The position numbers and the translations under genes are program-made. A DNA stretch of 63,060 nt, filler included, from Reclinomonas americana ATCC 50394 (taxonomy: Eukaryota): NCBI GenBank assembly GCA_048213135.1. It is 21 parts of 21 records of this genome, joined end to end, with 100 filler letters (N's around TTAATTAATTAA, not from the genome) between each part and the next. Parts side by side here need not be neighbours in the genome. Positions count along the whole stretch, not along the records: positions 45,551 to 49,483 come from AFZH01020149.1; positions 49,584 to 51,676 come from AFZH01020150.1; 19 more parts are not named here. One strand, given 5' to 3'. Below, piece by piece: positions 5,340 to 51,602 of this stretch; positions within the stretch are counted from its first letter, which is position 1; every line of letters begins with the position of its first letter. The notes beneath the pieces were generated by a model that did no database searches, had not been told where the DNA came from, and saw only the letters and a list, made by a program, of their open reading frames with translations.

Positions 5340-5439
5340 NNNNNNNNNNNNNNNNNNNNNNNNNNNNNNNNNNNNNNNNNNNNTTAATTAATTAANNNNN
5401 NNNNNNNNNNNNNNNNNNNNNNNNNNNNNNNNNNNNNNN
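5340..5439. other. Assembly gap linker N44-TTAATTAATTAA-N44 (first of 20)
   Basis: Identical 100-bp linkers start at 5340, 6671, 10638, 14612, 17316, 19634, 23581, 26989, 30225, 31988, 34486, 35999, 37378, 41400, 45451, 49484, 51677, 57755, 59447, 60636. The core gives stop codons in all six frames. Confidence 0.99.
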
Positions 5440-21218: not shown

Positions 21219-24200
21219 TTACTTGGCATCCTCGCCGTGAGTCTCCGCATACACAATCTCCTCCTCGGTGCGCTTGTCAATGTCGAGCAGGCTGAAGGGG
21301 ATGAACTTGACACCGTCGCCGACGTAGAACTTGCTCTGGAACTCGACCCAGTGCAAGCGCAGCGCGTGCAAGAACGCCGACAGCGACTCCATCATCAGCA
21401 GCACGCCGACAGTCACGCCCGACCACACCGCGAAACCGACAAAGGTGAAGATGCCGTAGTAGTTGTCGGCGGCAATGGCCTTGGCCAGCACGAAATCCCA
21501 AAACACCTCCGACAGCTGCGCGTGCGCCAGCGACAGCGCCCACAGACGCAGGTACGAGGCGGTGTTGGAGATGGCGCCGAGCACGTACTCGATCGTGTGG
21601 ATCATCTGGTGCATCATCACGTCGCTGAACTCGAACTCGCCGTCACCGTGCTGCGGGTGGGGGGAAGGAAAGAGAGAGAGGGAAGAGTGAGCAAGGACAA
21701 GGGTATTACATACAAGTCATTCTCCCGCGAGCTGCAATGACTCCCCTCTCGCTATTCGAAAGCATATCTCTCTTCCTTCTTATCATTCTACTCTCCCGCA
21801 CACTCACAAGATCCTCCTCGACATTGTTTCCAGTCATTCAAAACTGACTACTCGCGCCTTCGTCCCTCCCACACAAGCTCTTCCTTTTGCGACAAAATGT
21901 CTCTTCTCTTCAACAGTCATTCAAAACTGAGTATCTCTTTCGTTGTCATTCGCCTTCTTCCCTCTCCCACACAAGACAAGCTCTTCCTCCTACGACAGAA
22001 TGCATCTTCTCTTCGACAGATCTTTTTCGTTGTCATTCGCCTTTTTCCCTTCCACGCACAGAGCACTTCCTCCACGGCAGAACGTCTCTTCTCTTCGACA
22101 GTCTTTCAAAAGCACGCACTCTTTCGCGTTCTCTGTCAAGCCAGCTTCTCATCACCATCACAACATCTTCCCCGGATGCCCACGCTTCCTCTCTGCCCCC
22201 ACACACTTGCTCTCTGCGACATGCTATCTCTTCTCCTTTCTCATTACACACTCTTCCTCCCTCTCCTTCTCCCCCTCCCCCCTTTACCCCACTCACCCCA
22301 TCATGACCACCGCCACCACCGCTGTTGCCACCGGCAGTCGCGGCATGATCCGAGGCCTCCACGCGCAGCGGCGCACTCGACGGCCCCTCATTCTCCTCAT
22401 CCTCGTGCGACGAGTCCGACGACAGCAGCATGGGGCGGCTCTCGTGGAACGTGTGCGGCACACCGTCGGCCGGCGCCAGCCCGCGGCGCTTCAGCTCCTG
22501 CTTGTGGCGGTAGCGCAGAATCAGGGGCTTGGGCAGCAGCAGGATCGGGATGGCCAGCACGGCAATGACCAGCAGGGCGGCTTGCACTTTCGGCTGCGTG
22601 GGTGGGAAGGGGGATGGTGAGCATGCAAGCAGTAAGCAGTAAGCCCCTACTTTTTCTTCTTCTCCTCCTCTCCCTTTCTTTTCTCTCTCAGAGCCCCTGT
22701 GTAAATCAATGTCACAGGCGGCACGGACGAAAAATTGCCCGTCGCTACCTCATACACAAAGCAAGTAACACAATCATCACCGAGAGCTCGCTCACTCAAT
22801 CTCACTTCCCCTCCAACCCTACAAAAAAGAGGCGCTCACCTGCGACTCGTAGATGAGGTCGCCATCGTTGACACCGCCGAGTTGCAGGAAGAACGAGGTC
22901 ATCATCGTTAGCAGCGACGGCGGGCCCTGGGACAGGCCAGCCGGGCGGCTCGCCGACCAGTTGATGCACCACTTGACAAAGATCATGACACACATGTAGC
23001 CGAAGGTGAACGAGAGGAAGATGAACTCCGGAATGGTCATGGTGAACACGTTGAGGTAGTTCTTGTTGTAGAGGTTGTTGAGCAGGCTCATCACCACGCC
23101 GAAGAGCATGTGGGTCACTAAACGGGGGAAGGAGGGGAAGGGTGAGATGATAAGCAGGAGGCGGTGGAGGTGAGAGAGAGAGAAGAGGGCGATGAGGGCA
23201 AGAGAGAAAGTGTGTGGGAGTGAGAAAGGCAGACAGACAGACAGAAATGCAACACACACGCATATGCACACAACGTAACATGATGAATCAATGAAGACAG
23301 AAAGGCAGAAAGAAAGAAAGAGAGAAGAGAGAGAGAGGAACACGCACACACACTCGCGCACATAGAAAGAAAGCAAGAAAGAGTGCACACACTCGCACAC
23401 ACAAGAGACACGCAGGAACGACCTGACCTCTGATTTAATAATAAAGCAAGAAAGAAGTGAGCGAGAGAGGATGAAGGAGCAACGGACTTGCACGAGGCGA
23501 CACTAAATGCTGCACCGTGCCAGACAGAAACTGCTTCTCCGTTCCCCCCCCCTTCCCCTTCCTCCCTTCCCCTTCTCCTTNNNNNNNNNNNNNNNNNNNN
23601 NNNNNNNNNNNNNNNNNNNNNNNNTTAATTAATTAANNNNNNNNNNNNNNNNNNNNNNNNNNNNNNNNNNNNNNNNNNNNGGAGAAGGGAAGAGAAAGGG
23701 AAGGGAGAAGAGAGAGAGAGAGAGTGGGAGAGAGAGAGAGAGGGAGAGATCGACGCGGGTGATGCTGAGAATTGAGAAAGAAGCACCAGCCCTCGACATG
23801 AACTAAAGAGGAGAAGGAAAGAAGGCAGGATAAAAACCCGAGACTGAATGTGAGCGCACACAGATAATGTGAGCGACTGGGACACCACAAGGTGTGACGA
23901 AGACAGCAACATTCAGATGGATCAGGAGGGACGCAGAGAACACACAACAAACAAGGAGATGGTGAGAGACTGATGCACACAGCGAGCGTGAGGAACAAGA
24001 ATAGAGACGACACACACACGCATCTCAATGAGATGAGTGATGCAGAATTCGGAAAGAACGGGTGAGACGAGAGCGACAACTACTCGCACACACAGAGAGA
24101 GAGGGGGGAGAAAGAGAAGAAGAGCGAGAGAGAAACGAGAGTTGTCAACAGCGGGAGTGCGAGAGGCAACACTGCGTGATGCAAATAGCAGAAGCGAATT

Positions 24201-24841
24201 CGGAAAGGCAGGCGACAAACGCTCACAGAGTGATGCAGAGAGCAGAGGATGAAATGAGAAGGCTTGAATCGCAAGTGATGCAGAGAAAGGAACTCTGCAA
24301 AAACACAAGCAAGGCGACACGTCGAAGAGAGAAGCGCTTGCCCTCCGTCTCTTCCTCTCCATCTCCTCCTTTCCCTTTCTCTCCCATCTCCTCCTCCCGC
24401 CTCACCTCCAGCTCCTCCAGCGAATCATTGCCCGGCGGCATGTTGAGCTGGGCCTTGAGTCCGGCCAGACGCATAGCCTTCTCAAAGTAGCGCACCTTGC
24501 GCTCCAGCTCCTCAATGCCCTTGATGTCCTCGGCGAACTCACGAGCAAACGCATTCAGTTGCGGATTCAACTATCTTACGTAGTCAGCAAATGCCGGCAG
24601 AACTGCTGCGACTGAATGCAGCACGCAACGTCCTTGAACTGCGTCAACCCCATGCGTCCAAGCTCCTCGCATGCCTCGAAACACGCCTAACACGCACACA
24701 GAGAGAGTGTTCTTGTTGTGTAAGAAGACATGTCGCACGTGCCATCTCCCCGTCCTTCGTGTGTGACAAGAGAAACGCAACATCGCGCTGCACAATGAGC
24801 TGCAGCAGCTCCATGGGCGCCGAACGCCACAACGTGCCCAT
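21219..24841 (-). CDS. VPH1: V-type H+-ATPase V0 subunit a (Vph1/ATP6V0A); central part missing in gap
   Basis: [159 protein letters not shown]. Confidence 0.97.
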
Positions 24842-27088: not shown

Positions 27089-28437
27089 TTTTCGATTTCC
27101 TCGTCAGCATTGGTATGCGACCACTGGTGAGGAGCAGAAGGCACAGTCCTTTCTCAGTTCAGGCTGCATTCTCTGACCAAAGTTGGGGGGGGAGCAAGGT
27201 GGAGATTGGCTTCATGCCGACCCTGCTGGCCTCGGGCAACCAGACGTGGAGTCACTACATGGCCAATGTGACGCCTCCTCGCGACTGGAATCAGTGGGCG
27301 TTGCTCGTGGCCGAGTTTGTGGGTCATCTGGTGGACCGATACGGGCTGGCGGAGGTGCTGCAGTGGAACTTTGAAGTATGGAATGGTGAGAGGGTGAAAG
27401 GGCGCTGCGAGTGAGCGCAGGGAAGCTGACCTTGGGTGTCGCGCGTAGAGCCGAACTGCTGCCCGCACGACTTTTGGACCGGATCGCAGAGTGCGTTGTG
27501 TCATCGTCGCCGTCGTGTTGTTACACGGACTCATGAGGCACTGTGTGCGCATGCCAGGCGACTACTTTTACCTCTTCAAGGTCACGTCGCAGGCGGCCAA
27601 GTCGGCGGATCCTCGCATCCGCGTCGGTGGTCCGGCGACTGGTGTGTTTTTGCGCTCCACATCTCTCTCTCTCCCGCCCGCCAGTGACATGACTCGCGCG
27701 CAGCCATGTCGGCGTGGGTCGCCGACTTTGTCAACTACTGCCGCACCAACAATGTGGCGTTTGATTTCATCAGCACGCACGAGTATCCCACCGATCCGCC
27801 AGGTCCGCAGACCCGTGCGTTCTTTGGCGACCAACTCGCACGCACCCGTGCCACTGTCGGACCGGGCATTCCGATTTACTACACCGAGTACGACGACGGC
27901 TACAACGATGGCACGAGCTATGCAGCCGCCTTTGCCGCCTTCCAGGTGTTCCGTGCGAATGGTGTCGTGGATGCCATGTCGTGGTGGCCGTTCAGTGATT
28001 TGTTTGAGGAGGCGGGATTGCGGCCGGATCCGTTCAATGAGCAGTGTGAGTGGTGGGGAGGGGAGAGAGGGGGAGAGGGGGGGTGAGAAAGGGAGGACAA
28101 CGAGACGGAGAGCAGCACCTGCATGTTACCGTTGTTGCCGATGGGAGGAATGACAAGAAGAGCTGAGGTGGACAAGGATTGTGAGGGGAGGAGTGTCAAT
28201 GGAGATTCTTCTTGCTACTGTTGTTGTTGCGGGTGAAGGGAAGGTGAAAGAATGAAGCGCGTAGAAGCGGAGAAGTAGAGAGCCGGGGAGGAGTAGGCGT
28301 GCATACTGCTGTTGCAGTTGCTGGTGGTGAAGAGGACCATGCACAGGAGAGAAGCAGAGCAGAGATGTACAGAGACGGCAACAGGGTAGTGTGAGTCGAG
28401 GGCCTGCATGTCGCTGATGTTGGGGAGGAAGTAGAGG

Positions 28438-28501
<64 letters not shown>

Positions 28502-29621
28502 CGTGGAGAAGTACGGAGAAGCGACGAAGAAAGAATGGAGCGCCCGTTGTTGGGAAGGAAGGGTAGAAGGAAACAAGAGTAGAGAAGTGGAGAAGGCGAG
28601 AAAGAGGAGATGGCAATGTGGGTTGACGATGTTTTTTGGAAGCGAGTGCGGAACTTGCAAAGTTGAGCAGAGAAGTAGAGACGGAAGACGATGCGAGAAG
28701 ACAAAAGAGTAGATAAGGCCAACTTCCTTTCCTGTTGTCAGTTGGAAGCAGGTAGCGAATAACAGAGGCGAGTAGACACGGGCGTCTGCACATGCCTGTT
28801 GTTGCTAGAAGAGACGAGAAGTGGAAAATGACGGGAGGGAGTGAGGTTGAGGGGAGGGAATGGAGTGTCCATATGCTGCTGTTGATTTGGGGAAGAGAAG
28901 GAAGAGTGGAAAACGTGAGGCGAGAAGTAAGCGATGGGAGACAGCCGACAACAACAAATAATGCAATGATAGAAGAAACTTGCACTGAGCATGCACAACA
29001 ATGAGCATCTAACAGTGATCGCCAGCAAGTCTTGTGTGCTTTCCTTCTCCACATTCTCCTCCACATCGCTTTAATACAGCTCACTCTCTCCCTCCCTTCT
29101 CCCTTCCCTCTCCCTTCTCCCTTCTCGCCTTCGCCTCCAAAGGGCTCCCTGTTGCCGGCCTGCTCAACATCTACGGCATTCCGAAACCATCGTACCGCGC
29201 CTTCCAACTTCTGCACTGGACCGGCGACAAGCTGCTCGCCACCACTCCCGACTTCATGTCGCACCCGTCGGTGGGTGTCTTTGCTGTCGGCGGCAACGGC
29301 ACGTCGGTGTTTGTCGTGAACTGGAATGTGAAGAACCAGACGCCGCCACAGCCGCAGTCGGTGCAGGTGACGGTGCGCGGTCTGCCTGCCACTCCCACCC
29401 CCAAGGCCGTGGCCTACTACATTGACGAGCACAGTGCGAACGCGCTGCCGACGTGGATCAAGATGGGCCGCCCGCCGTACTTGTCGCCGGCGCAGGTCGC
29501 CGTGCTGCAGGAGGCGTCGGAGATGCAAGCCGAGCCGCTGGGGTTGCAGATCGACTCCGGTGGCGTGACATTCACCGTCACTGTCGCCTCGAATGCGCTT
29601 GTCAACGTAGTTATTCGATGA
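27089..29621 (+). CDS. Glycoside hydrolase family 39 beta-xylosidase-like (5' end in gap)
   Basis: FDFLVSIGMRPL|VEIGFMP, NVTPPRDWNQW, WNFEVWN|EPN (acid/base), RVGGPA, DFISTHEYPTD, IYYTEY (nucleophile), SWWPFSDLFEE, GLLNIYGIPKPSYRAFQLL, WIKMGRP. Confidence 0.92.
28436..28500. repeat. (GTT)n microsatellite in a GH39 intron
   Basis: About 21 perfect GTT units. Confidence 0.95.
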
Positions 29622-31609: not shown

Positions 31610-32089
31610 CCGGTTCATCATTCGCGTGCGTGCGTGCTTGCGTATGTTTGTGTGTGCGTTGGGGATTTTTTGCTTCAGGAGTTTGTGAGCAGCATTCGCT
31701 TTATCCTTCTTTTCAACTGCTTCTATTCTTCAGCGATCAAGGAGTGTATCTTTTGTCTTTTTATCAAAAGCACAGTTTGGGAGAGAAGAAGAGAGAGCAC
31801 GTGTGGAAGCTGAGAAGTGTACAAAGCGCCACCCACCGCCGGCAATGAGCCCTCGTGAGCGATTCGTACGCGCGGAGGTGACATTGAAGCAATGGATGCC
31901 GACGTCATGGCCTCGGGCGTTCATCGGAGCCAGGTTCGTGTATTTTCTTCATCGTCAAGTGGTGCGGGCTGGTGCTCACTCTTGCGCNNNNNNNNNNNNN
32001 NNNNNNNNNNNNNNNNNNNNNNNNNNNNNNNTTAATTAATTAANNNNNNNNNNNNNNNNNNNNNNNNNNNNNNNNNNNNNNNNNNNNGT

Positions 32090-32151
<62 letters not shown>

Positions 32152-32408
32152 GGCTGTGGTTGGCGATTGTGTTGAGTCTGCATTCTGCGTGTGAGCTCCT
32201 TGTTTTGTTGTTTTCTGACTGTTTTTTCTCTCCTTTACCTTGTAATTGTGACTTCTCTTGCTTGCTGTGGCTCTCGTTTGCCTCTCCTTCCTCACTCGCC
32301 GTCACGCGACTTTCGTGTTGTGTCACTCGATTTTGTGTTGTGTAAAGTGCGCATTACAGATCGTCATTCTCCGAAGAGCGCAGAGCTCCGTTTCTCTCTG
32401 CGACGAAG

Positions 32409-34597
32409 ATGGCCTCGGCGGCTGGCTTCTCAGTCGCTGACCGCGACAGCGTGCTCTCGGCCGGTGAGTTCACGCAGTGCAGAGATGCTCCCCACTGGGA
32501 ATGCTCAACGTCATTGTTTTGTTGCTGCAGATCTTTACGACATTCCGCTCAATTATTTGAGCTCATGGTGCACAGACTGCACTTGTATGGTGCAGGGCCA
32601 ATCGTTCTGCGATCCACAATTGACAATGCAGCTGTATGTCAGTTGCGCAGCATGCGTGGAGGCCACCGACGAAGCCAGATTGGCGGTTGCAAGAAACGAT
32701 TTGCTCCACATCATCGTCCGCTGCTGCATTACGAAGGGTGTGTCTTGGCCTGCCTGTTCCTCTTTGTTTCTTTCGGTGATCTACCGGTGACCCACTCTCG
32801 TGCCTCGCAGAGCGTGTACTGCGGTTGTACACGATACATCAGATAACAGTCTTCATGCATGCTTTTGACAAGGAGTCCCAGACGTACGGCGAGTTGGCGG
32901 CCTGCAAAAGGACACTCCAGGGCCTGTCCGTGGAGCCCGACTTGTCCGTGCGAGAGCAAGTCCGCGCCGATGTGCGGCGTAAGGTAGATGGCCTGTTTGG
33001 CGTACCAGTTGAAGACGACGGTATCATGCGTATGAGCTACCATTTGGTGTGCTTCGTGAGAGCGACTCATTCGTGATGCAATGTGCTGTAGCAATGACGG
33101 ACATCAGCGGTTTCTATCTATCCAAGCATCCGCTGCGAGTCGAGCTCACTGTCGAGCACTTGTTCAACTACATGCGAGATACTGACGAGGAGCATGCATT
33201 CAGTGCCGAGCGGATGAGCAGCCTGGTGAAAGGTTTGTCGAGATGCAGATGAGAGAGGTGGTTTTGTGGTTTACTCATGGTATCTTAATGACTTTCACTC
33301 GGGCAGGCCTGTCGTACTCAGCTAACAAGCTCGCGCTGCAAGCGATCGAGCAGCTGCGACCAGACACAAGTGCGACTACGGGTGCGGGTGTGCCGTTGCT
33401 CGTAAACATTGTGCGGGAGTTTCCCGATGCTGTACGGACGCGTCTGGCGGCGTGCCAGGCAGAAGTCACCAGACTTCTCCACTTCGATGTGAATCGTGCA
33501 AGGTCAGAGGAGTCCTCTCTCTCTCTATCCGTATTACTTCTGACTTGTCGTGTTGGTGATGATGGGTGCAGCAACGATGATCATGCAGAGGACGTGCTCG
33601 CATATGATCTGCAGTTGTTTATGCATCCGGCGATGCAGTACACGATGTCTGATCTTGGCAGACGTGGTTCGTCGGCCTTGCTGTATCGTTTGACAATGAC
33701 GACGTCTCACTTTTTCGCTGCAGGGTATGTGGGCCAGTGCACCAAGAAAATGTGCGAGCTTGCGTTTACGGCAAACTTTGTACAAGTTCTGGACGCTGCG
33801 TTGGCGTTTGCGAGTCATCGGCTTGAGTTGGCGGCGGACGCTGCTCGCGTAGGCGAAGGCTTCGACGCCACGACAGCTACATCTGTTGCTGGTGATGTTG
33901 TTGAGGAGGGCCTGGCGAGCCTTGCTGCACCCGAAGCCGACTCGCTGATTCGCGTTGGTCACGGAGACCCGTTTCCATGGGGTTAGTGTGTGAGAGAATG
34001 CGCATGTCCCTGTGCGTTTCGAGACTCTCACATGGCGATGTTGCCGGTTGTAGAGTCAGCGAAGAGGGTGACAAGCACCACCAACGTGCTTGGTGTCGAA
34101 TTCATGAATCCGGAGCAAGGAGGCTTTGGATCATCGGCTGCGCCTACGCAGAATTGTGACATGTGCGTGGGCGTCGTTCGTGGATCTGCCGTCGTTGACC
34201 TGCCGTTCTTTGTTGAATGCAAGGCTGGAGCATCGCACCTGAAGTTTCGTGCACCGCAGCAACTTTCTGTGCCATGCGTCTTGTTTTTTTTCCTGACTGG
34301 CTATATGTTGCAGGAAGCATTGCGCAAAGGTGCAGAACCAGTTTCCCTCTCGTCAAGCATTCGGTCAAGCGGTGGCGGCGCTCGACTACGCACTTGTGAA
34401 TGAGCACCTCAGGCTGCATGGCGCGAAGTCGAGTGCGATGCTGTTGAACTCGCTGCTCAACACGTCGACACGCCACCCGGACTGTNNNNNNNNNNNNNNN
34501 NNNNNNNNNNNNNNNNNNNNNNNNNNNNNTTAATTAATTAANNNNNNNNNNNNNNNNNNNNNNNNNNNNNNNNNNNNNNNNNNNNCGTCGTGTGTGC

Positions 34598-34671
<74 letters not shown>

Positions 34672-34905
34672 TGTTTGTGTACTGTTTGTTGACTGCAACT
34701 CCGTCTTGCTGTGCAGTTGGTAGCATGCAGTCTCTACTCGCTGCATATTTGTTCATCGCTGAAGAGGCGGTGAAGAATGTTGACGTACTCAAGAAGTATT
34801 CTTCGAACACGTCAGTTGTGCCTGTCGCTGCGGCAGCGCATGTAGAAAAGACCATTCACTTGTTTTCGGCAAGTTTCGTGCTGTTATTGATTCCGCGCTT
34901 GCCTA

Positions 34906-34944
<39 letters not shown>

Positions 34945-35829
34945 ATCATTTTCTTGCGACCATTGTGCAGCGCCTAAACACGCACCCACGCCGTTTGTGC
35001 GCAAGACGCTCTCGAATGTCAGCAGACGATTAAACGAGGCGCAAGTAATCGACGTGCTGTGGAAGCACGTGGAAGAGGAGTCGCTTGTGCGCCGCTGCGT
35101 GGTGCAGGTGGTGGAGTACGATCGAGTGGCGCAGACGATGTGGATGCCGCGCTATCCGTGCGACTCGCTGGTGACGATGGACGATTTGGTGAACTACACG
35201 TACACGCTGCTGTTGGCGTTGCAGCACTGCCACGAGAATATGGTTGTGCACTGCGACGTGAAGCAGACGAATGTGCTGTTCGACCGCGTGCTCAAGTGCA
35301 GTCGGCTGATCGACTTTGGTCTGTCGCGAGTGGTGACGGCCGACGAACCCTACGTCAGTGGCACATTCGGCACACGTGGATACATGGTTCGTGCGTTCGC
35401 GCCACAGCGTGTGTTGGATAACTGACGCGTTTCATGCAGGCGCCAGAGACTGAGGGCGTCGACTTTGACGTGTACTGTGGTTTCGAGAGCGACATTTACA
35501 GTGCCGGTGTGACGATTGCCAGTGTGGCCATGGGCCATGCGGACCGTGCACCGGACGTCATGTACACGTGGTTGGATCCGCTGGAGCGCGTGGAGGGGGT
35601 GTTGAGGGCGTTGTGGATTTATCCGCAGCGGTGGGCGGCGACGGCGGACGAGTGGCGTGCCCTGCTTGATCTGTTGGAAGGCATGATGGCGTTCCGCGAC
35701 TACGACCGCTTGACTGCAAGCGAGGCTCTGGAGCATCGTCTGTTTGCGAGTTGCCGGTGCCATATGCATCACGTGGAGGCGAAGCAAGCAGTGGCTCCGA
35801 CAAGTGCGGCGTCGGACTCGTCGGCATGA
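32409..35829 (+). CDS. Multi-exon protein: helical N-region + PD-(D/E)xK REase-like domain + protein kinase (Crinkler/CR-effector-like); crosses a gap
   Basis: Spliced ORF from MASAAGFSVADR; ..NCDMCVGVVRGSAVVDLPFFVECK (~34155-34223) ..QAFGQAVAALDY; after the gap, kinase FVRK..E..HCDVKQTNVLFD..LIDFGLS..GTRGYM|APE..SDIYSAGV..RLTASEALEH. The kinase is certain; fusion across the gap is inferred. Confidence 0.65.
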
Positions 35830-36098
35830 AGCAGCATTGGTGGGCAGGAACAGCCACAGAACAAGGCATGTGATGCGTTGTGAAGCGAGGGATTGTTCTC
35901 ATGCTCAACATCGACTTGCAGATGCCAGGCGACACACGAATGCCAGCGTCTGGTGATCGTCATGAATGAATGAAGAAAAGCAGGGAGATGGAAGAGAGNN
36001 NNNNNNNNNNNNNNNNNNNNNNNNNNNNNNNNNNNNNNNNNNTTAATTAATTAANNNNNNNNNNNNNNNNNNNNNNNNNNNNNNNNNNNNNNNNNNNN

Positions 36099-37477: not shown

Positions 37478-37514
<37 letters not shown>

Positions 37515-40500
37515 AGTACACACACACAACTCGATCACGTTGCACAGTGCTGCAGCATTGGCGGAGTATCTATTTTCCGGTAAAACGCAATGATACTGCA
37601 GGAGGGGAGCGATTACCGGGCGACGCCGTTGAGGCACTGGCAGCGATCGCGAGGAATCACACTGTTGCTTCCGCTGCTGCTGCATCGTTGCGAGAGGTGA
37701 ATGGAACGGCGATCAATGGCACGGATGCGACAAAGGGCAAGAAGGGAAAGACGGCGGAGCAGAAAGTGGACGATGCGTTGCTGGCGTCGCGGTTTCGTGA
37801 CAATGACGAGCTGAAGTTCTCGTTGCGGAGCGTGGAAAAGTATGCACCGTGGGTGCGGCGGATCTACATTGTGACGAACGGTCAGATACCTGCGGTGAGT
37901 GTGCGACGTCGTCTTGCGAGCGATCGGAGTGGTGATCCGTTTGATTGATTGATTGATTGCCTGCAGTGGTTGAACATCGATCACCCTCGGGTGCGCGTTG
38001 TCACGCACGATGAGATCTTTCTCGACAAGTCGCATCTTCCCACATTCAGCAGCCCCGGTATCGAGTCGCATCTGCACAGAATACCAGGTGTGTGTTTGTC
38101 AGAGAGGTCCGAGTGTGTCTGCCTGCCTGACTCATTTTTTCCTGCTATCAAGGTCTGAGCAAAAAGTTCATCTACCTCAACGACGATGTGTTCTTTGGCG
38201 AGGAGATCTGGCCCGAGGACTTTTACACGCACTCGAGGGGGCAGAAGGTGCCTGAGAGCGCAAGCACCCTCTCGGTTTATTCCTCCATTCTCACCACATC
38301 ACCTCCGCAGGTCTTCATGTCGTGGACGGTGCCCACGTGCGTTCCCGGTTGCCCGCTGACGTGGTTGGGCGATGGTTTTTGCGACACGGCGTGCAACAAC
38401 ACGTTGCGTCGCGGCGTGCCAGACATTCGTTCCTTCTTTCCTCAAGAGCCATCTGTTTGTGCAGTGCATGCGGATGGGATGCTGGCGAGTGTCTGGGTGT
38501 CAACGTGACCGTGCGATCACGATTCTCGAGTTGGACAGGCAGCAGCAGTTGCGTATTCTTGGTCAACGTTGGGCATGGTTGTCAGTTGCTCACTACGATG
38601 TCTGCGCAGCCTCAAACTGGGCGGGCGCCAGTCGCAACTCGAAAAAGTACTGTACCATTGGGTGCCCGGATTCGTGGCTTGGCGATCGCTACTGTGATCG
38701 TGCCTGCAATCGCCTCGAGTGCGCGTTTGACGCGGGCGATTGCGGCACCATTGATGTGCACGACTACATGCCAGGATACCAATTACCTGCCGAGGTGCGC
38801 TTCTCGCTGTCTCTCCGTGGTCACTTTGCAGAATGCTCACTTCCCTGCTCTAACGGCAGGGTGGCTCTCTGGTTCTATGTGCCAACACGCCCTCCTTCTA
38901 CGTCAACCTCACGTCGGCGTTCCCACACAAGCTCACTTCCGGCAGCCACGACAACAAGTCGGTGGTTCGCACGTCCACCATTTCGCAAAAGTTCAAAATC
39001 ATGACCGTGACGGTGTTCCCGGAGACGGCTGCTGGCGATGTACGTTGGCAATACCTTTGTATTTTGTGGTGTTGTGGAGGAGAGACTCAGGCGAATCTTC
39101 GTCGCAGGATGTTGCATTTGAGATCAGTGGCGAGGATGTGCCCGGGCACTCGATCATGTCACGACTGAACATTACGTTTGTCAGCGCCAATGCCACCGAC
39201 GGTATGTTCATCCACATCCTCTTGTTAAGGATTCGAAATGACTTATTCCACCGCCTCGTAGTGTGCGTCAAGGCGCTGTACTCGCTGCCGCCCAATTTCG
39301 TTCCGCGCGGTGTCAAGGTCCCATCGTCATCCTCGTACTCCAGCTATTCGAGCCATTCGGCGTCTCCACCGACTCCGCCGCCTCCACCACCGCCACCGTC
39401 ACCATCATCAACACCAGTGCCACCGTCGCCGTCGGATGCGCTCACGGACATTGGAAGGTCACGCAGAGGAGCAGTGCCCAATCTGTACAATCAACCAAAT
39501 GGTAAGTTGCCTGTTCTGACTGCGCGACAATGCTTCATAGATCGTCATCTCACTCGTTCCTCCCTTACTTTGCCGTGACAGCGGGTCCATACACCCCAGG
39601 GCCGTCGTCTCGGCGATCGCGATATGAACCTCCACCACCCGTGCGACCACCGCCACCATCGCTGCCTGCGGTCGACATATCGCCGGCCGAACTCAGTGAC
39701 ATTTTGGCGAGAGCGCGTATTGAGCTCATGAGGCAGTTGCGCAACTCAACAACCGCCGCCACGAGTGCCATGGACGCCGTGCTATCGCACATCGAGGATA
39801 CGCTGCAAGAGTCGTCGACGGAGGACACGTCAGCTGCCGTGCACGCCGCGGTCGCCACCAACTCAACCACTGTTGCTTCTCCGCCGGCGCCGGTGGTGCC
39901 GCCAACGGACGATGCTCGACCACCTCCGCGCACGCTGCCTCCCGCGTCTGTGGCGGCACCAGACCAGCATGTGGATGACAACGACAGTGGTGCGACGGTT
40001 GGTGAGCAGCAAAGTAGCGAGACGGCAGAGACGGCCGAACGGCTTCCGCCGAGGATGTTGCCGCCGGCCACCTCATCAACAACCACATCCCCGTCTCTGA
40101 CATCGACAGACGACGCTCCAGACGTGGCGGAAGATGACTCCGCGCCCGAAGCAGCGTCGACCGACAGCCATGTGGAAGAGGAGAAGGAAGAAGAGGAGAA
40201 AGAGACGACGACTGCGACGGAAAAGGAGGAGGAACATGAGGTTACTGCGACAGACGTGGGCGGCGAGGGTACCGTGGAGCAGCACGCCGACGATGTGGAA
40301 CCGGCCGCCATTGAGGCGGAGGTGGAGCAGGAGGCGCGCGAGGACGCAGAGCAGCAGGAGCAGGAGGAGGAGGAGCAGCGGGAGGAGGAGGCGCAGGCGG
40401 CCGAGGCGGCCTCCGCCGAGGATGCTGCTGTTGATGAAAGTGATTCGACGGAGCCCCCAGATTATGCACACGAGCTGCGGCGTCGCCACTTGCGACTGCG

Positions 40501-43128: not shown

Positions 43129-46025
<2,897 letters not shown>

Positions 46026-46385
46026 GCTTGTAGATGTGCTACTGTGTGCTTCTGTACATGGGCATTCGTGCGCGAGGTTGCGCTGCGTGTTGACGCCTTT
46101 TTGCACCCGTGGATGAGTCTCGACGTCGACGTTCGAATTCGTGATGGTTTTGCGCGAGAATGCCTCAGCATGAATTTCCCTTTGCGTGTCGCTTCTGGCG
46201 CATCAGCCTCCAGCAAATAGTCTCCGATCGACTCCCACCAACCAGTGAGAATGTGATCCGAGTCAGCTGCCGCCCGCGTGTCTGTACTGCATGCAGATTG
46301 TCGAGCATGACATCAATGCCAGCAGCAGGTGGTGTCCCATCTACGTTGCGTTCCTTTACTCTACTTATGCGCAACAAGCCTGCTG

Positions 46386-47714
46386 TCAAGACATTGTGCG
46401 TAGCTGATCGACAACCACGTCGAGATCAAGCGGAAGAACGACGCCGCTTCGTTCATCGGCATGTTCTTCTGGATGCGCAAGCTGGGACTCTGGGTTGCCA
46501 CCAGTGGCGCTGGATTGCGTTGAGTTGGACCCGGAAGCTTCCGAGCCATCGTGATCCGCCTCCACATGCGGAGTGGCGGTGGAATGCACTGATCCTGAGG
46601 CCACCGACTCATCGTGACCCGTCTCCTCCTCGCGGCCAGCTTCCGAGGCCGCCGCGGAGAGCGGCGGTGGATCAACCGGCTCATCTGCTCGCTCTGCATC
46701 CGGCGTCGTGCACGTGCCCGCATGCACACGCTGCGGAGCCTGTCAGCTCACACGATGTAGACACACAATTGTATACACCACTCGTGCACATACCTCCACC
46801 ATCATCGGTGCTGTCGGCTGCACCATGAATGCGTGCATCAGAGCGTCGCCGGCCAGCAGACGCTCCTCGGGCTCCATCACCGTCAGCCTCTTGAACAACT
46901 TGGCTGCCTGCTGCACGTACTTGGGGCACAACTCCTGCCCAGAGTGGCGGCGGTGCATCGCAGGCACCTCCTGCAACAGCACTTCTCGCGCCACATCGAG
47001 AACCTCACTCGGATCGAACGCCACGAACCCGTCGCTATCGCCATGCAACAAGAGGCCCGACATCACCTCCACCAGCAGCAGTCCGAGGCACCACGAGTCG
47101 GCGGCCGCCGAGTACTGCGGGAGCTTGTCCATGTCGCTGTCCGACACAAGGAACTCAGGCGGCTGTACACGTGCACAGGTAATGAGGGACATTCTCTCCT
47201 TCTACAACAAGAAAGTAAACACATCGCAGACATAGATACCTGGTATCCGTACGTCCCAGCACCTCCCGTCGCCAGACCGTGTTTGTCCACCTTGCGTGCG
47301 TGGTCAAAGTCGCCAAGCACGGCTCGTCGGTGCTCACGGCTGTAGAAGACGTTGCCGAGACGAACGTCGCCGTGCACAACACCGCAGCGGTGAGTGTACG
47401 CCAGCGCACGCGTCACGTCCGTAATGTACTGCCGCACTTCGCTCTCGTCGAATGGATCCGGCACGTCGTTGCCGTAAAACGGCATGCTGAATCCGAACCA
47501 GTCTCGCTTCTGGCGATGCCAGCCATGCGCGATCACCGTCGGCAAGTAGGCGACATCGTCGCTCACCAACACCCGCCGCAGTACCACGGCCTCAGCTCGT
47601 GCGCTGTTCGCCTCGCGTTTCTCCCGACTCCTTCCCCACTTGGTCACAATGCGTCGCTCTGGGACCCGCCAACAACGCGCTCTCATCAGCCACAAGAAAA
47701 GTACACATAGCGGT

Positions 47715-47768
<54 letters not shown>

Positions 47769-49583
47769 GTACGCACCCTTGTCGACCACCACCACAACGT
47801 GTGACCTTGAGTGGAGAACGTCGACAGTGTCAACGCCTGGTCCAGCCAACGGCAGCAGCGCATCCTCGTTCACGTAGTCACTCGCCGCCACCCCCTCGTC
47901 GGTCTTCTTACTGTCGTCGACACCGCCAAGGAGACTTGCCGATGGTCTCAGCGGCTATCGACGATACCATTCCAATAGGAGGAAACGAATAAACGAGTCT
48001 CGAGGGGCTCCTAACCACATCTAGGCCATCGCCAACAGCTGCCGCAGTGCGGCGAACAGCACGAAATATGCGCAGTTGAGCTTGCAGCAGCGACGCCACA
48101 GATCCGACTCCTACGATCAAGGTCAAGGATAATGAGAATGCATACACAACATCGAACTTGCATCAAAAAACGACGAAACGACGGCCACGGACGCCACCCT
48201 CTTCAAAGTCCCAGGTGCCAACCACTGTGACGCGAATACCGGTCACTTCAACAACGCCAGGCACACTGCCGCCCTTGATGTGTGGAGCAAATCGCCAGAG
48301 CGACAGGCCAAGAGGCGTCAACAGCCAGCTGAAGAACACGGCATCCTGTGCCGCGTAGCTGCCAATCACAATCAGCAGCTCCTGCCAGCACGCGCATCCG
48401 TTGACCACGGTCTTCACAAAGTCAGCATGGAACGCGGTGGTGCTGAACAGGCGCTGAAAGGCCGGGAACGAGTAGCTGCGCAGACGAGAATGAGATCGCA
48501 TCACACATGACACAGTGTGAGGGCCAATGCACCCAATACAACAGTGACGCACGCTGGTTCAAGCTCTCCGTAGTCCTTCTGCAGTTTGGCCTCGGCGGTC
48601 ACATAGTTGATGCCAAGTTTGCCGCGGTGGTGGACAACAAGGTCAGCTCGTTTCGCATTCGGCCCGGATTTCACTGCATTGACAAGCATCAGTCATACAC
48701 GATCGCAAAGATTCAAACTCTGGTACACACAGCAAATCACACACGTACGTGCACAGTCCTGTTGCGCCTGGAACAACTCGGGAAGGGAGCTGGCAAACGG
48801 TTGCGTCAACGTCTCGCCCATCATGGTGACCATGGTGGCTTCGCATGTGCTTGCTGTTGGCCATAAAAGTAAGACGCAGTGCAGCGCCAGAAGCAGCGCT
48901 TGAGGCAACGCACCAGTGTAAGCGACTCGCGTCATTCCATACCCGCGAAACGTCCGCAGCATTCGATGCAAACCGATGGTCGCGTGCTCCAAAAATGCAC
49001 TCTCCTCCGGCGCGAGGAGACCAGGAGGAAGAGCAGCCGCCACGTCGCGTGTCACTGTGAAACTGTGCAACAAAATGTCTCCGATCAGAACCCCTCTTGA
49101 CACAAACAGACACTGAATGCATAACTGCGAAGCGTCGTCTCGATGCTCATCGACCACAGCAACGAGTCGATCCACCAGCTCGATCTCCTCATCAGTGAGC
49201 AACGGTGCCCACGATCCATTGTGTGGCACGGTGTGAACATGAGCAGGCGGCGTGCTCTCGCGGAGGCGACGAACGGCGTCGAAATTCGGCGCTCCAAACA
49301 CATCTGCGTGCGCCGCGACAACAACGCTGGTGGGTACACAGTCGACGCAGGAACACAGAGCGAGAGAAGAGATACAGCCATGAAGAGGGAGGAGAGATGC
49401 AGAGGCAAGAGAGAGAGACAGGGCGATGAGTAAAGGAAAAGAGAACGAATCAGTCAGCGAGAATAAACACACACACACACACANNNNNNNNNNNNNNNNN
49501 NNNNNNNNNNNNNNNNNNNNNNNNNNNTTAATTAATTAANNNNNNNNNNNNNNNNNNNNNNNNNNNNNNNNNNNNNNNNNNNN

Positions 49584-49676
<93 letters not shown>

Positions 49677-50514
49677 AAGCAAGCTGGCAAGCAAGCAAAC
49701 GCACTATCTTGCAACCGCTGACTGAACTCCGCCGCAGTCGGATCCCCGTCAGCACCAACTTCCTGGCGCCACTGGAGATGTTGACGGAACAGCGTCATTG
49801 CTGCTTCTCCATCTCTCTTTCTTGGCAGCTTCTCGTGCAGGTCGTCATGAGCGGCCAGAGAGGCCACTTTCGCTGCGTCGTTGAGCAATGTCTCGGCCAC
49901 ATCTCGCGAGATGGAAAGAGCGCTCTCGGTGAGCGTGTCGACGCAATCATAAAGCACTGGACCAACAACCGAACAGGTCAGTGTGTGTATATAACAAGCA
50001 CAGTTAATGCACACTTACTCCCATCGCTGAAGTACATTTGTCTCTTCGCACGCAGATGATTGCGGAGAGAGAGACGCGCACATTTGAAAATGTCGTCAGT
50101 CGCTGAAGGCAATTGGTAAGTGAGCAACTGCACCAAGAACGTCGTTATGTAAAGCCATCTCAACAACCTCGATCGACGTCGCCAATGTTTGTGTAACCGG
50201 CTTCGATCAGGAGGTCGCGGAGAGCATTGGAGAGCGCTTGCGCTGCGCAAATCGCCGTCCTTGTGAGCACACGAGACAGATGAGGTGACAGAATGCAACA
50301 CCAAAACCTTTGATCGTCGCCTCTTCTAAATTCACTGGCTCTTCAGTCGGAGGCGGCGGTGCTGCTGCTGAGGGTGGCGTTGGCGTTGCTGAGGATGACA
50401 AGAGACAAGAGAGTGAATGGAAATTCGAAAGAGATCGAGGCAGTGTGAGCTTGTGCGCGTGTGTGCGCTTGCCTCACCTCCAGATGAATCGACGAGACTT
50501 GTGGGTCGACTCAT
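46386..50514 (-). CDS. Multi-exon protein: N-region + PD-(D/E)xK REase-like domain + protein kinase + acidic tail (Crinkler/CR-effector-like); crosses a gap
   Basis: MSRPTSLVDSSG|ATPTPP..; KRADLVVHHRGKLGINYVTAEAK (~48652-48586); CWQELLIVIGSYAAQDAVFFSWLLT; kinase IVTKW..AEA..YLPTVIAHG..HRCGVVHGDVRLGNVFY..VLGDFDHA..GTYGYQ|PPE..ADSWCLG..RLLAGDALMHAF. REase-like and kinase exons lie on one contig; linkage of the 5' exons across the gap is inferred. Confidence 0.7.
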
Positions 50515-50743
50515 GCGCGCAAAAGAAAGAAAGAGACAAGTGAGAAAACTATCAAAGCAGGACGTGCCTTGTGTAAACACTGAAACGTTCAGCAGTTACC
50601 TCTCATGCTGACACCGATCTTGTACTTCTTGTCATTGTCAATCAACGAGCGCTTTCGTCAGCGCTGCGGGCTTCGTTGGGTGTGCTTCGTGTCCTATGCG
50701 TGTCCCACTATTTCTTTTTTTGTTGTTTCGTTTGTGAGTTGCA

Positions 50744-51075: not shown

Positions 51076-51498
51076 TGTGTGCCTTGAGTGTGTGCTTTAG
51101 AGAGAGAAATGCACGCATTTTCAGTGTGTGTGTTGTGTGTGTGTGTGTTGTGTAGTGTGTGTGTGCATCTTGCGAGTCACATGCGCGCATAGTATGTGAG
51201 ATTGATCAGTGAGAGAGAGGGAGAGAGCAGCGTGTGTATGTGTTACTCGAGCGCACACACTCTCAATGCAACATGCACAGAGAACACGTACTGTGCCGAG
51301 TCTCTCTCTCTCTCTCTCTCACTCACTTTCCTCTTCTCCTTTCCGTGTTTTTTTCTTTTTGCAGTTCGCAGCCGCACGTGTGGGTGCCTCGCAATGAGCC
51401 GGCGCACGAGTTCAACATCAAGTACTTTACTCGTGACACTCGTCGTGGGAAGAGCGACACGGTGGTGTTGACTCCGCAGGCGGCGCAGGATGCGGCAG
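50744..51498 (+). CDS. NDUFA7: NADH:ubiquinone oxidoreductase subunit B14.5a/NDUFA7-like (first two exons; rest in gap)
   Basis: Exons 50744-50841 and 51365-51498 splice to MLRSIGEKLRKAIGG..YRYPAPA|SQPHVWVPRNEPAHEFNIKYFTRDTRR; the Y-x-RD-x-RR and YRxPxPxSQP motifs are characteristic. Confidence 0.75.
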
Positions 51499-51602
51499 GT
51501 GGGTGCAGTGGAGAATGAGGGGAAGTGAGGGGGAAAGGAGATTGGGAGCAAGACTGAGAGCAATAGAGAGAGAGAGAGCAAGAGAGAACGGAGGGAAAGG
51601 AT

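Follow-up and report, generated by a model that had tools for sequence, protein, structure and literature searches.

The locus at 46386-50514 raises the question of whether its minus strand encodes a nuclease fused to a protein kinase, as in the Crinkler/CR class of effectors, or a kinase preceded by a region of some other kind. The first-pass annotation had proposed the fusion. The window (the whole stretch of DNA analysed, 63,060 nucleotides) consists of 21 contigs and 20 spacers of 100 bases, each spacer made of 44 N, TTAATTAATTAA and another 44 N. In the reading that we prefer, to which we give a probability of about one half, the locus would be one gene for an active divergent kinase with a lineage-specific regulatory or targeting region at its N terminus rather than a nuclease.

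Gene Structure of the Locus

The motif letters quoted for this locus (RADLVV, TAEAK, Q..SY, FFSWLLT, HGDVRLGN and DFD) were all found on the minus strand, where a chain of GT-AG exons can be followed from about 49326 to a stop at 46386. The chain, here called copy B, has seven introns of 61-118 nt with compatible phases at every junction, and a codon score ranked the proposed frame first of six in six of the eight segments. The exons and the spacer are as follows.

49706-50514, minus strand: tentative 5' exons, placed by eye: four or five, all short, after an ATG at 50514-50512
about 49705-49956, minus strand: last tentative 5' exon, on the next contig, its linkage crossing the spacer
49484-49583, no strand: contig spacer of 100 bases, flanked at either end by (TG)n and probably within an intron
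48749-49326, minus strand: exon E1, 192 in-frame codons, orphan; acceptor ccag, donor gtacgt
48553-48673, minus strand: exon E2, 39 codons, with the D...ExK pattern; read from the sequence
48198-48475, minus strand: exon E3, 92 codons, with FPAFQ, QELLIVIGSY and FFSWLLT; read from the sequence
48016-48110, minus strand: exon E4, 31 codons, the proposed "linker helix"; phase-1 acceptor and phase-0 donor fit
47777-47954, minus strand: exon Kn, putative start of the kinase N-lobe, assigned by eye
47240-47658, minus strand: exon K1, alphaC to activation segment; Pfam Pkinase
46794-47162, minus strand: exon K2, kinase C-lobe, beginning at PPE; Pfam Pkinase
46386-46730, minus strand: last exon, an acidic and Ser-rich tail of 114 codons read from the sequence, with no Pfam family, and the stop at 46386-46388

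E1 and E2 lie in one frame, with a single TGA within their 75-nt intron. Among the orphan exons, the codon score was highest for E3; the proposed frame of E1 came top of the six by a small margin (-0.03 against -0.18 for the next best), and those of E2 and E4 were not favoured, E4 being the least certain exon in the chain. Read together, the exons would form one multi-exon minus-strand gene and presumably one transcript. The part on the main contig would encode about 800 residues, rising to about 975 if the gene also takes in five upstream exons from the next contig. A single-gene fusion is a plausible reading of copy B.

The motif and kinase exons had been described as lying on one contig, and they do share one. 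The stretch 49584-50514 is on the next contig, so that the feature as delimited crosses the spacer at 49484-49583. The two flanking contigs are likely to be adjacent in the genome, given the (TG)n on both flanks and a gene for V-ATPase a that spans another spacer in consistent order. The best-looking splice sites across the spacer at 49484-49583 have phases that do not fit. The flanks had also been assigned to two housekeeping genes, katanin and NDUFA7. A katanin-like gene is present at 43132-44388 (AAA, AAA_lid_3 and Vps4_C domains), whereas the NDUFA7-like exon is a weak call (CI-B14_5a, E 0.019, 15.2 bits, under the cut-off of 25); both are on neighbouring contigs.

A Divergent Protein Kinase

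The kinase half of the earlier description held up well. Pfam Pkinase matched two of the six exon pieces, K1 above its cut-off (PF00069, E 2.6e-11, 43.9 bits against 31.7) and K2 below it (E 5.5e-5, 23.1 bits). In searches of PDB sequences, the best match of K1 was PLK1 (E 1.1e-5), with 122 kinase sequences at E ≤ 1e-3, and that of K2 was MAPK13 (E 0.002), with 68 at E ≤ 0.1. Kn by itself matched nothing in Pfam or PDB. The kinase motifs are as follows.

47823-47849, minus strand: degenerate glycine loop LAGPGVDTV, in Kn, by eye
47778-47798, minus strand: VVVVVDK with the candidate beta3 Lys, in Kn, by eye
47351-47374, minus strand: HGDVRLGN, catalytic Asp and Asn, in K1
47303-47311, minus strand: DFD, metal-binding Asp, in K1
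47240-47257, minus strand: GTYGYQ, in K1
47154-47162, minus strand: PPE, start of K2
47082-47099, minus strand: DSWCLG, in K2

HGDVRLGN, DFD and PPE have the canonical spacing of the catalytic Asp/Asn, the metal-binding Asp and the Glu of APE, and a candidate alphaC Glu was placed by eye in AEAVV. The remark that the domain has no obvious glycine loop was half right: the loop is degenerate, and the LAGPGVDTV candidate had been missed. As in eukaryotic protein kinases (PF00069), the catalytic core, alphaC through subdomain XI, shows HxD...N, D-F-x, GT..Y..PE and DxWxxG in canonical order. The nearest solved sequences, PLK1, CDC7, CK2alpha and p38delta, are all weakly similar (best PDB E 1e-5). 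Unlike typical Pkinase members, copy B has Gly for Arg in HRD (non-RD), Arg for Lys two residues past the catalytic Asp, DFD rather than DFG, a candidate glycine loop shrunk to GPG..T and an acidic residue immediately before the candidate beta3 Lys.

At the level of sequence, the C-terminal half is confirmed as a real but divergent protein kinase, and a domain of eukaryotic type would make up the last 320 residues or so. The residues for phosphotransfer appear to be retained (Lys of VVVDK, Glu of AEAVV, Asp and Asn of HGDVRLGN, Asp of DFD, GT.GY.PPE and DSWCLG), and because of this we read the domain as a probably active, non-RD kinase of Ser/Thr type, which would not depend on phosphorylation of the activation loop.

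Wider searches with the kinase gave no relatives. A word-indexed search of longer proteins returned 938 candidates for K1, and 133 for the kinase of the second gene described below (copy A), none of which scored, and the nine pattern matches of K1 in viral contigs gave none that was confirmed. In metagenome contigs, the sole confirmed one of 134 pattern matches to K1 (L001) was a hydrophobic bacterial open frame sharing QKRDWFGF and was rejected.

The Region Upstream of the Kinase

About 360 residues precede the kinase, or about 360-530 when the upstream exons are counted. No Pfam family was found in E1, E2, E3 or E4, and none at E ≤ 1 in the four tentative N-terminal exon pieces; Pfam includes a model of the Crinkler header. 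PADLOC gave no family, NCBIfam gave noise alone (E 0.12-0.14), and the motif-bearing exons had no match among PDB sequences at E ≤ 10. For E3, a word-indexed search of longer proteins yielded 146 candidates, of which none scored, and metagenome contigs yielded 427 pattern matches, of which none was confirmed; the ESM Atlas had no usable match to E3 or E1. The sole match of E1 in a full HMMER search of 1.84 billion protein representatives (P0001), a repetitive protein of 944 residues matched in five stretches at 24% identity, was of low complexity by eye and was rejected as spurious. The exon boundaries divide the putative REase core among E1, E2 and E3, and AlphaFold2, run on single exons, gave models too poor for a fold search (pLDDT 44.1 for E3 and 41.4 for E1).

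The letters behind the nuclease call are in E2 and E3.

48633-48650, minus strand: RADLVV, in E2, D at 48642-48644
48585-48599, minus strand: TAEAK, in E2, E at 48591-48593 and K at 48585-48587
48355-48384, minus strand: QELLIVIGSY, in E3
48316-48336, minus strand: FFSWLLT, in E3

As the N-terminal region matches no family, the call rests on one pattern, the D-x16-ExK of E2. A generic form, D-hhh...hh[DE]hK, had six matches in the six-frame open frames of the window, which total 75,794 residues, against a mean of 2.7 (range 0-7) in 100 shuffles, so one such pattern per region of about 500 residues is unremarkable. Two of the six lie on the N-terminal side of a kinase, one in each of the two kinase genes that the window yielded, a placement that is suggestive, with the pattern written after both had been seen. 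A tuned form matched twice in the window, both times N-terminal of the two kinase genes.

We also compared the region with profiles of known nucleases. We built the REase, kinase and response-regulator profiles from loci of prokaryotes, after removing those truncated at a contig end, those that matched in part, those with both strands or neither open, and two from a genome flagged as unpublished (G216). With hhalign, all eight query-by-family comparisons to VRR_NUC, Hjc, Mrr_cat and UPF0102 gave probabilities of 0.1-0.6%, a test of low power, as true REases of different families also stayed at or below 0.6% in 9 of 36 comparisons. Each of the eight scores was below the maximum of the 25 shuffles made for it, and between 1 and 21 of these shuffles equalled or exceeded it. 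E2 resembles minimal PD-(D/E)xK nucleases (Hjc, VRR-NUC, YraN/UPF0102) in its hairpin-like pattern of D-hhh, a turn with G and hh-E-h-K, of similar length, but differs from them in lacking this profile similarity.

The Other Kinase Gene of the Window

In tblastn searches of the window with six exon pieces, self matches were the only ones at E ≤ 0.01, and the chance-level matches at E ≤ 50 led to a second kinase gene.

33186-35826, plus strand: copy A, a kinase gene with a similar D...ExK pattern

Copy A repeats the order of copy B, with large upstream open frames and then the kinase on one strand, and both have a phase-2 intron shortly past the K of the pattern (at 11 residues in one gene and 7 in the other), followed by FPxxQ. 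Its exons E2A and E3A gave no family in Pfam, PADLOC or NCBIfam. Weak matches of its large exon to an exotoxin A translocation domain, in Pfam (E 0.0017, below the cut-off) and in PDB (E 0.65), were rejected as noise, the exon being helical there.

The N-terminal regions of the two copies did not align above chance. Their Smith-Waterman score was 34, against 35.5 ± 5.0 for shuffles, 172 of 300 of which were at or above the observed value; hhalign gave 13.3, with shuffles reaching 18.7; and MAFFT left the two motifs unaligned to each other. The best local match pairs CDMCVGVVRG of copy A with CIQCLFVSRG of copy B. Kinase subdomains IX-X are an equally good reading of the pattern in copy A.

Weighing the Readings

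That the locus holds two adjacent genes, an upstream one ending at the stop at 48163-48165 and a separate kinase, or that the upstream frames are partly non-coding, seems improbable to us. This stop lies in the E3 frame only 11 codons beyond the proposed donor, the codon score favours neither the 31 codons of E4 nor the 39 of E2 and favours E1 weakly, and long open frames are common in the window (307 of at least 100 codons in 63 kb). On the other hand, a kinase on its own would have no in-frame ATG before the N-lobe, there being none upstream of Kn within the Kn open frame, barring a 31-nt intron that would be short beside the others of 61-118 nt. The joining of all seven GT-AG junctions in fitting phases and the same gene order in copy A also argue for one gene. 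If the exons are joined, the upstream part could be a PD-(D/E)xK nuclease formed by E2, E3 and the end of E1, followed by a linker and the kinase as in Crinkler/CR proteins, where the nuclease is thought to be toxic and the kinase its regulator; we regard this as unlikely. By the account of Zhang et al. 2016 in the available text of PMC5289972, REase plus kinase accounts for about one sixth of CR C-termini, and CRN homologues, some with degenerate N-terminal domains, are described for free-living lineages in the available text of PMC12957317; both would suit such a protein here. The motif letters are present, the D-x16-ExK with hydrophobic residues alternating around E and K resembles the PD-(D/E)xK hairpin, and the shared phase-2 introns and FPxxQ point the same way. 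The pattern is moreover rare, its coding-frame occurrences upstream of a kinase both being in the two kinase genes. If the motif were a nuclease site, copy B would share with CR modules such as Phytophthora CRN8 (as presented in the available text of PMC5289972) a D...ExK region of about 150 residues, a linker and a kinase. Against this stand the missing support from families, PDB and profiles, the failure of the two N-terminal regions to align, the alternative kinase reading of the copy A motif and, by eye, the spacing in copy B, where the helix LPELFQAQQDCA is too close to the D strand to leave space for beta1. CR effectors carry an N-terminal Ubl header with an LxLFLAK-type motif, as given in the available texts of PMC12957317 and PMC5289972; no string like LxLFLAK, LYLAK or HVLVxxP occurs in any minus-strand frame of 46386-50600, and the proposed start MSRPTSLVDSSGG has, as judged by eye, no hydrophobic stretch that would make a signal peptide of the kind by which pathogen CRNs are secreted. 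Copy B further differs from effectors such as CRN8 in being multi-exon and beside housekeeping genes. Judged from these sequence features, a REase domain and a CR effector in copy B are currently unsupported. It is more doubtful still that copies A and B are divergent members of a REase-kinase family with introns and without a header, akin to CR toxin modules and residing among housekeeping genes in a protist that is probably free-living. In such a family the nuclease would be gated by the attached non-RD kinase and act inside the cell in self/non-self or anti-invader conflict.

The upstream region might instead be a degenerate second kinase-like domain, a reading that we hold to be as unlikely as the nuclease. 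The "REase" letters, or at any rate those of copy A, would then be what is left of kinase subdomains. Tandem pseudokinase-kinase proteins are exemplified by JAK JH2-JH1, and the genes here would resemble them in carrying faint kinase-like motifs, in colinear order, along an extended N-terminal region before an intact kinase, with statistical support that is borderline and confined to copy A. Compared by hhalign with a profile of 19 bacterial Ser/Thr kinases, the N-terminal region of copy A reached 22.4 (P 0.024) across 167 columns, above all 20 shuffles (maximum 20.7), and a shorter query scored 22.6, above all 25. The alignment is colinear, setting FMHPAMQY on HPNIV, LGVEFMNPEQ on GT..Y.SPEQ, CDMCVGVV on SDIYSLGI and LPFF on G..PF. 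Copy B has FSDG...AAHDDLHEKL with a spacing of 37 residues from hinge to catalytic loop, which in PKA is 39; one hhalign alignment sets its HDDLHE on HRDIKP, and the best local match of the two copies pairs its CIQCLFVSRG with the CDMCVGVVRG of copy A. The signal was not robust, however: with the two window kinases added to the profile, copy A scored 18.8, which 4 of 30 shuffles reached, and against these two kinases alone 11.9, which 29 of 30 reached. Copy B never exceeded its shuffles, Pfam Pkinase reported no N-terminal exon at E ≤ 10, and a PDB phmmer search with the large exon of copy A returned no kinase. Twelve query-by-family comparisons were made, under which P 0.024 fails correction, and several mutually incompatible mappings by eye can be drawn.

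Discussion

On the reading that we prefer, an active divergent kinase in one gene, the N-terminal 360-530 residues or so would be a lineage-specific orphan region with a regulatory or targeting role and not a nuclease. Divergent kinases with orphan N-terminal regions are common in protist kinomes, and as it stands the finding of one more such protein is of modest significance. If the N-terminal region were a nuclease, REase-kinase toxin modules of CR type would occur in chromosomes as ordinary genes with introns and no delivery header, which would bear on effectors arising from, or decaying into, host genes. If the N-terminal region were instead a decayed kinase copy, the locus would be a protist case of tandem pseudokinase-kinase regulation.

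Contig order and gene model of copy B

The 63,060 bases of the window are not contiguous. They comprise 21 short contigs (1.1–6 kb) with 20 joins, each filled by an identical 100-base spacer (44 N + TTAATTAATTAA + 44 N; for example, 5340–5439, 45451–45550, and 49484–49583) whose insert carries a six-frame stop linker. As contigs are joined by spacers and several of them end in (TG)n or (GA)n microsatellites, apparent neighbors are scaffold neighbors with gaps of unknown size. The contig order looks like that of a real scaffold, the best evidence being the V-ATPase subunit a gene (21222–24570, minus strand), whose successive Pfam-matched parts remain ordered on one strand across the spacer at 23581–23680.

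The spacer at 49484–49583 falls inside the span of copy B (46386–50514), the minus-strand candidate gene, and is flanked on both sides by (TG)n, as expected of an assembly break in an intronic microsatellite. Contig 45551–49483 holds the gene from E1 to the stop codon; its proposed 5′ exons are located on the contig that follows.

Exons of copy B
49326–48749, minus strand, exon E1
48673–48553, minus strand, exon E2 (39 codons)
48475–48198, minus strand, exon E3
48110–48016, minus strand, exon E4 (31 codons)
47954–47777, minus strand, exon Kn, putative N-lobe
47658–47240, minus strand, exon K1, kinase
47162–46794, minus strand, exon K2, kinase
46730–46386, minus strand, last exon, ending in the stop codon

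All introns in this chain are GT–AG, 61–118 nt long, and of compatible phases. By a codon log-likelihood for which Pfam-matched stretches of the other window genes supplied 1,449 training codons, the proposed frame ranked top of six in 6 of the 8 segments, weakly so for E1; the exceptions were the two shortest, E2 and E4. At the junction 49705/49326 across the spacer, the best upstream donor is in phase 1 and the first E1 acceptor in phase 2, and this mismatch leaves the 5′ end of the gene tentative. A second AG ∼22 bases downstream of the first acceptor would restore the phase fit; alternatively, the gap at 49484–49583 may contain a hidden exon. Unless a 31-nt intron is assumed, no in-frame ATG precedes the N-lobe exon, which makes it unlikely that the kinase is a separate gene. 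We regard a single-gene chain as plausible and a wrong gene model as quite improbable.

The kinase domain and its relation to copy A

The copy B kinase is real and unusual. The Pfam family Pkinase matched K1 (E 2.6e-11, 43.9 bits, cut-off 31.7) and K2 (E 5.5e-5), and among PDB sequences K1 had 122 kinase matches, the top one PLK1 (1.1e-5), and K2 had 68, led by MAPK13 (0.002). The HGDVRLGN (47351–47374) and DFD (47303–47311) motifs reported in the first-pass annotation are both present. Its description of a kinase with no obvious glycine loop needs correcting: Kn contains LAGPGVDTV, followed 10 residues further on by VVVVVDK, and K1 starts with an alphaC-like ARAEAVV. As Kn searched alone gave no match in Pfam or PDB, these N-lobe assignments are made by eye. 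Since it retains the catalytic Asp, the Asn, the metal-binding Asp, GT.GY.PPE, and DSWCLG, copy B probably encodes an active non-RD kinase of Ser/Thr type, judging from these residues.

The second kinase gene of the window, copy A (33186–35826, plus strand), occupies contigs 32088–34485 and 34586–35998, with one exon entering the spacer at 34486.

Features of copy A
33186–33956, plus strand, large exon
34056–34241, plus strand, motif exon reading CDMCVGVV...FFVECK
34719–35826, plus strand, kinase with HCDVKQTN and DFG

The loop position in its N-lobe exon is without glycine (IAEEAVKNVDVL). The two kinases are 33% identical over 83 residues (E 4e-8). In both, a phase-0 intron separates GT.GY[QM] from [AP]PE at an identical position (47239|47163 in copy B, 35387|35439 in copy A), which suggests that a single kinase gene with introns was ancestral to the two. 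Within the large exon, 33297–33590 (plus strand; residues 38–134 of 33186–33956) weakly resembles the translocation domain of exotoxin A (Pfam E 0.0017, 18.8 bits against a cut-off of 25; PE-like toxin in PDB, E 0.65), a match rejected as probable helical-region noise.

In both genes a phase-2 intron lies 11 or 7 residues past the motif lysine and is followed by FPxxQ. The N-terminal regions did not align above shuffled sequences, in Smith–Waterman comparison (34 versus 35.5 ± 5.0, the observed score being equaled or exceeded by 172 of 300 shuffles), in the motif neighborhood only (21 versus 26.1 ± 4.3, 957 of 1,000), or in hhalign (13.3, with shuffles up to 18.7), and MAFFT pairs the two motifs differently. 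This counts against homology of the motif regions.

Nature of the N-terminal region

Searches with the N-terminal exons of copy B found no relatives. Pfam searches with E1 to E4, at thresholds of E <= 1 or 10, matched no family; PADLOC and the ESM Atlas gave nothing, NCBIfam nothing beyond noise at E 0.12–0.14, PDB sequences no match to E2 at E <= 10, and a word-indexed search of longer proteins nothing for E3 and K1. Metagenome and viral contig scans produced no real match, and when 1.84 billion representatives were searched in full with HMMER, the sole match to E1 was judged spurious. Within these collections the region is an orphan, the organism's own proteins being evidently absent from them.

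The reading of this region as a PD-(D/E)xK nuclease (REase) fused to the kinase depends on the letters RADLVV...TAEAK. The window's six-frame open frames, 75,794 residues in all, contain 6 matches to a generic pattern (D, next mostly hydrophobic residues, next 6–30 residues, and finally hh[DE]hK), against a mean of 2.7 over 100 shuffles, so that a single occurrence within a region of ∼500 residues is unremarkable. Notably, two of the six sit N-terminal of kinase genes, and these are the only two such genes that Pfam identified (of 213 screened open frames, 199 were searched and the remaining 14 overlap copy B). A pattern tuned to the two motifs matches those two only; both patterns were written after the motifs had been seen. 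The putative core is divided among three exons, and E3 and E1, folded singly with AlphaFold2, reached a mean pLDDT of 44.1 and 41.4, too poor for a fold search. Exon translations linked by X were compared by hhalign with profiles from prokaryote loci (VRR_NUC, n = 11; Hjc, n = 11; Mrr_cat, n = 22; UPF0102, n = 21), and both copies scored a probability of 0.1–0.6% in this low-power test, all eight scores being below the top of their own 25 shuffles (1 to 21 of which reached the observed score). True REases also score low across families (of 36 comparisons of a single REase with another family, 8 gave more than 10% and 9 gave 0.6% or less), and an unrelated response-regulator profile (n = 18) reached up to 11.5%; for these profiles, the negative result therefore says little. 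The REase domain of copy B is putative, and we hold the fusion to be unlikely.

We find a pseudokinase–kinase tandem similarly doubtful. The N-terminal region of copy A scored a borderline 22.4–22.6 against a bacterial kinase profile (n = 19; hhalign), above 20 of 20 and 25 of 25 shuffles (P 0.024), although the query-by-family comparisons total twelve and, with two other kinase profiles, its score was reached or exceeded by 4 and by 29 of 30 shuffles. As the alignment spans 167 columns colinear with kinase subdomains IV–X and pairs LGVEFMNPEQ with GT..Y.SPEQ, CDMCVGVV with SDIYSLGI, and LPFF with G..PF, one may read the "D...ExK" letters of copy A as an alphaF region belonging to a kinase copy that has decayed. 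Locally, the two N-terminal regions match best, though not significantly, where the CDMCVGVV stretch faces CIQCLFVSRG, which is in E1 of copy B and not in E2. In an upstream exon of copy B, a hinge-like FSDG and AAHDDLHEKL are spaced as in a kinase. Copy B, however, never exceeds shuffles against kinase profiles, and the Pfam and PDB searches of these N-terminal exons revealed no kinase; a kinase-like reading of the N-terminal regions is not robust. With a probability of about 0.5, we favor an orphan N-terminal region that would be regulatory, attached to an active non-RD kinase.

The first-pass annotation had also likened copy B to the Crinkler/RHS-related (CR) effectors, and membership of this class is not supported. 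PMC5289972 puts REase plus kinase at about a sixth of CR C-termini, the REase being thought the toxic part, and PMC12957317 describes Crinkler homologs with degenerate N-termini in free-living eukaryotes. Copy B resembles CR effectors in proposed domain order only: no LxLFLAK/HVLVxxP-like string of a CR header occurs in any of its frames, its N-terminal exons have no Pfam family, and no secretion signal was seen in it.

Neighboring genes

The proposed housekeeping flanks were confirmed on one side, where a gene with AAA, AAA_lid_3, and Vps4_C domains (katanin/Vps4-type) lies at 43132–44388 (minus strand); on the other, the NDUFA7-like exon at 51213–51515 (plus strand) is weak, its CI-B14_5a match (E 0.019) being under the cut-off. 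Elsewhere in the window, we observed a glycosyl hydrolase family 39 gene at 27091–29618 (plus strand), which we take to be iduronidase-like, and a gene with Stealth CR2 and LNR (Notch) domains at 37478–39001 (plus strand), presumably GlcNAc-1-phosphotransferase-like. If these two readings are true, they would suggest a lysosomal mannose-6-phosphate pathway in the organism.
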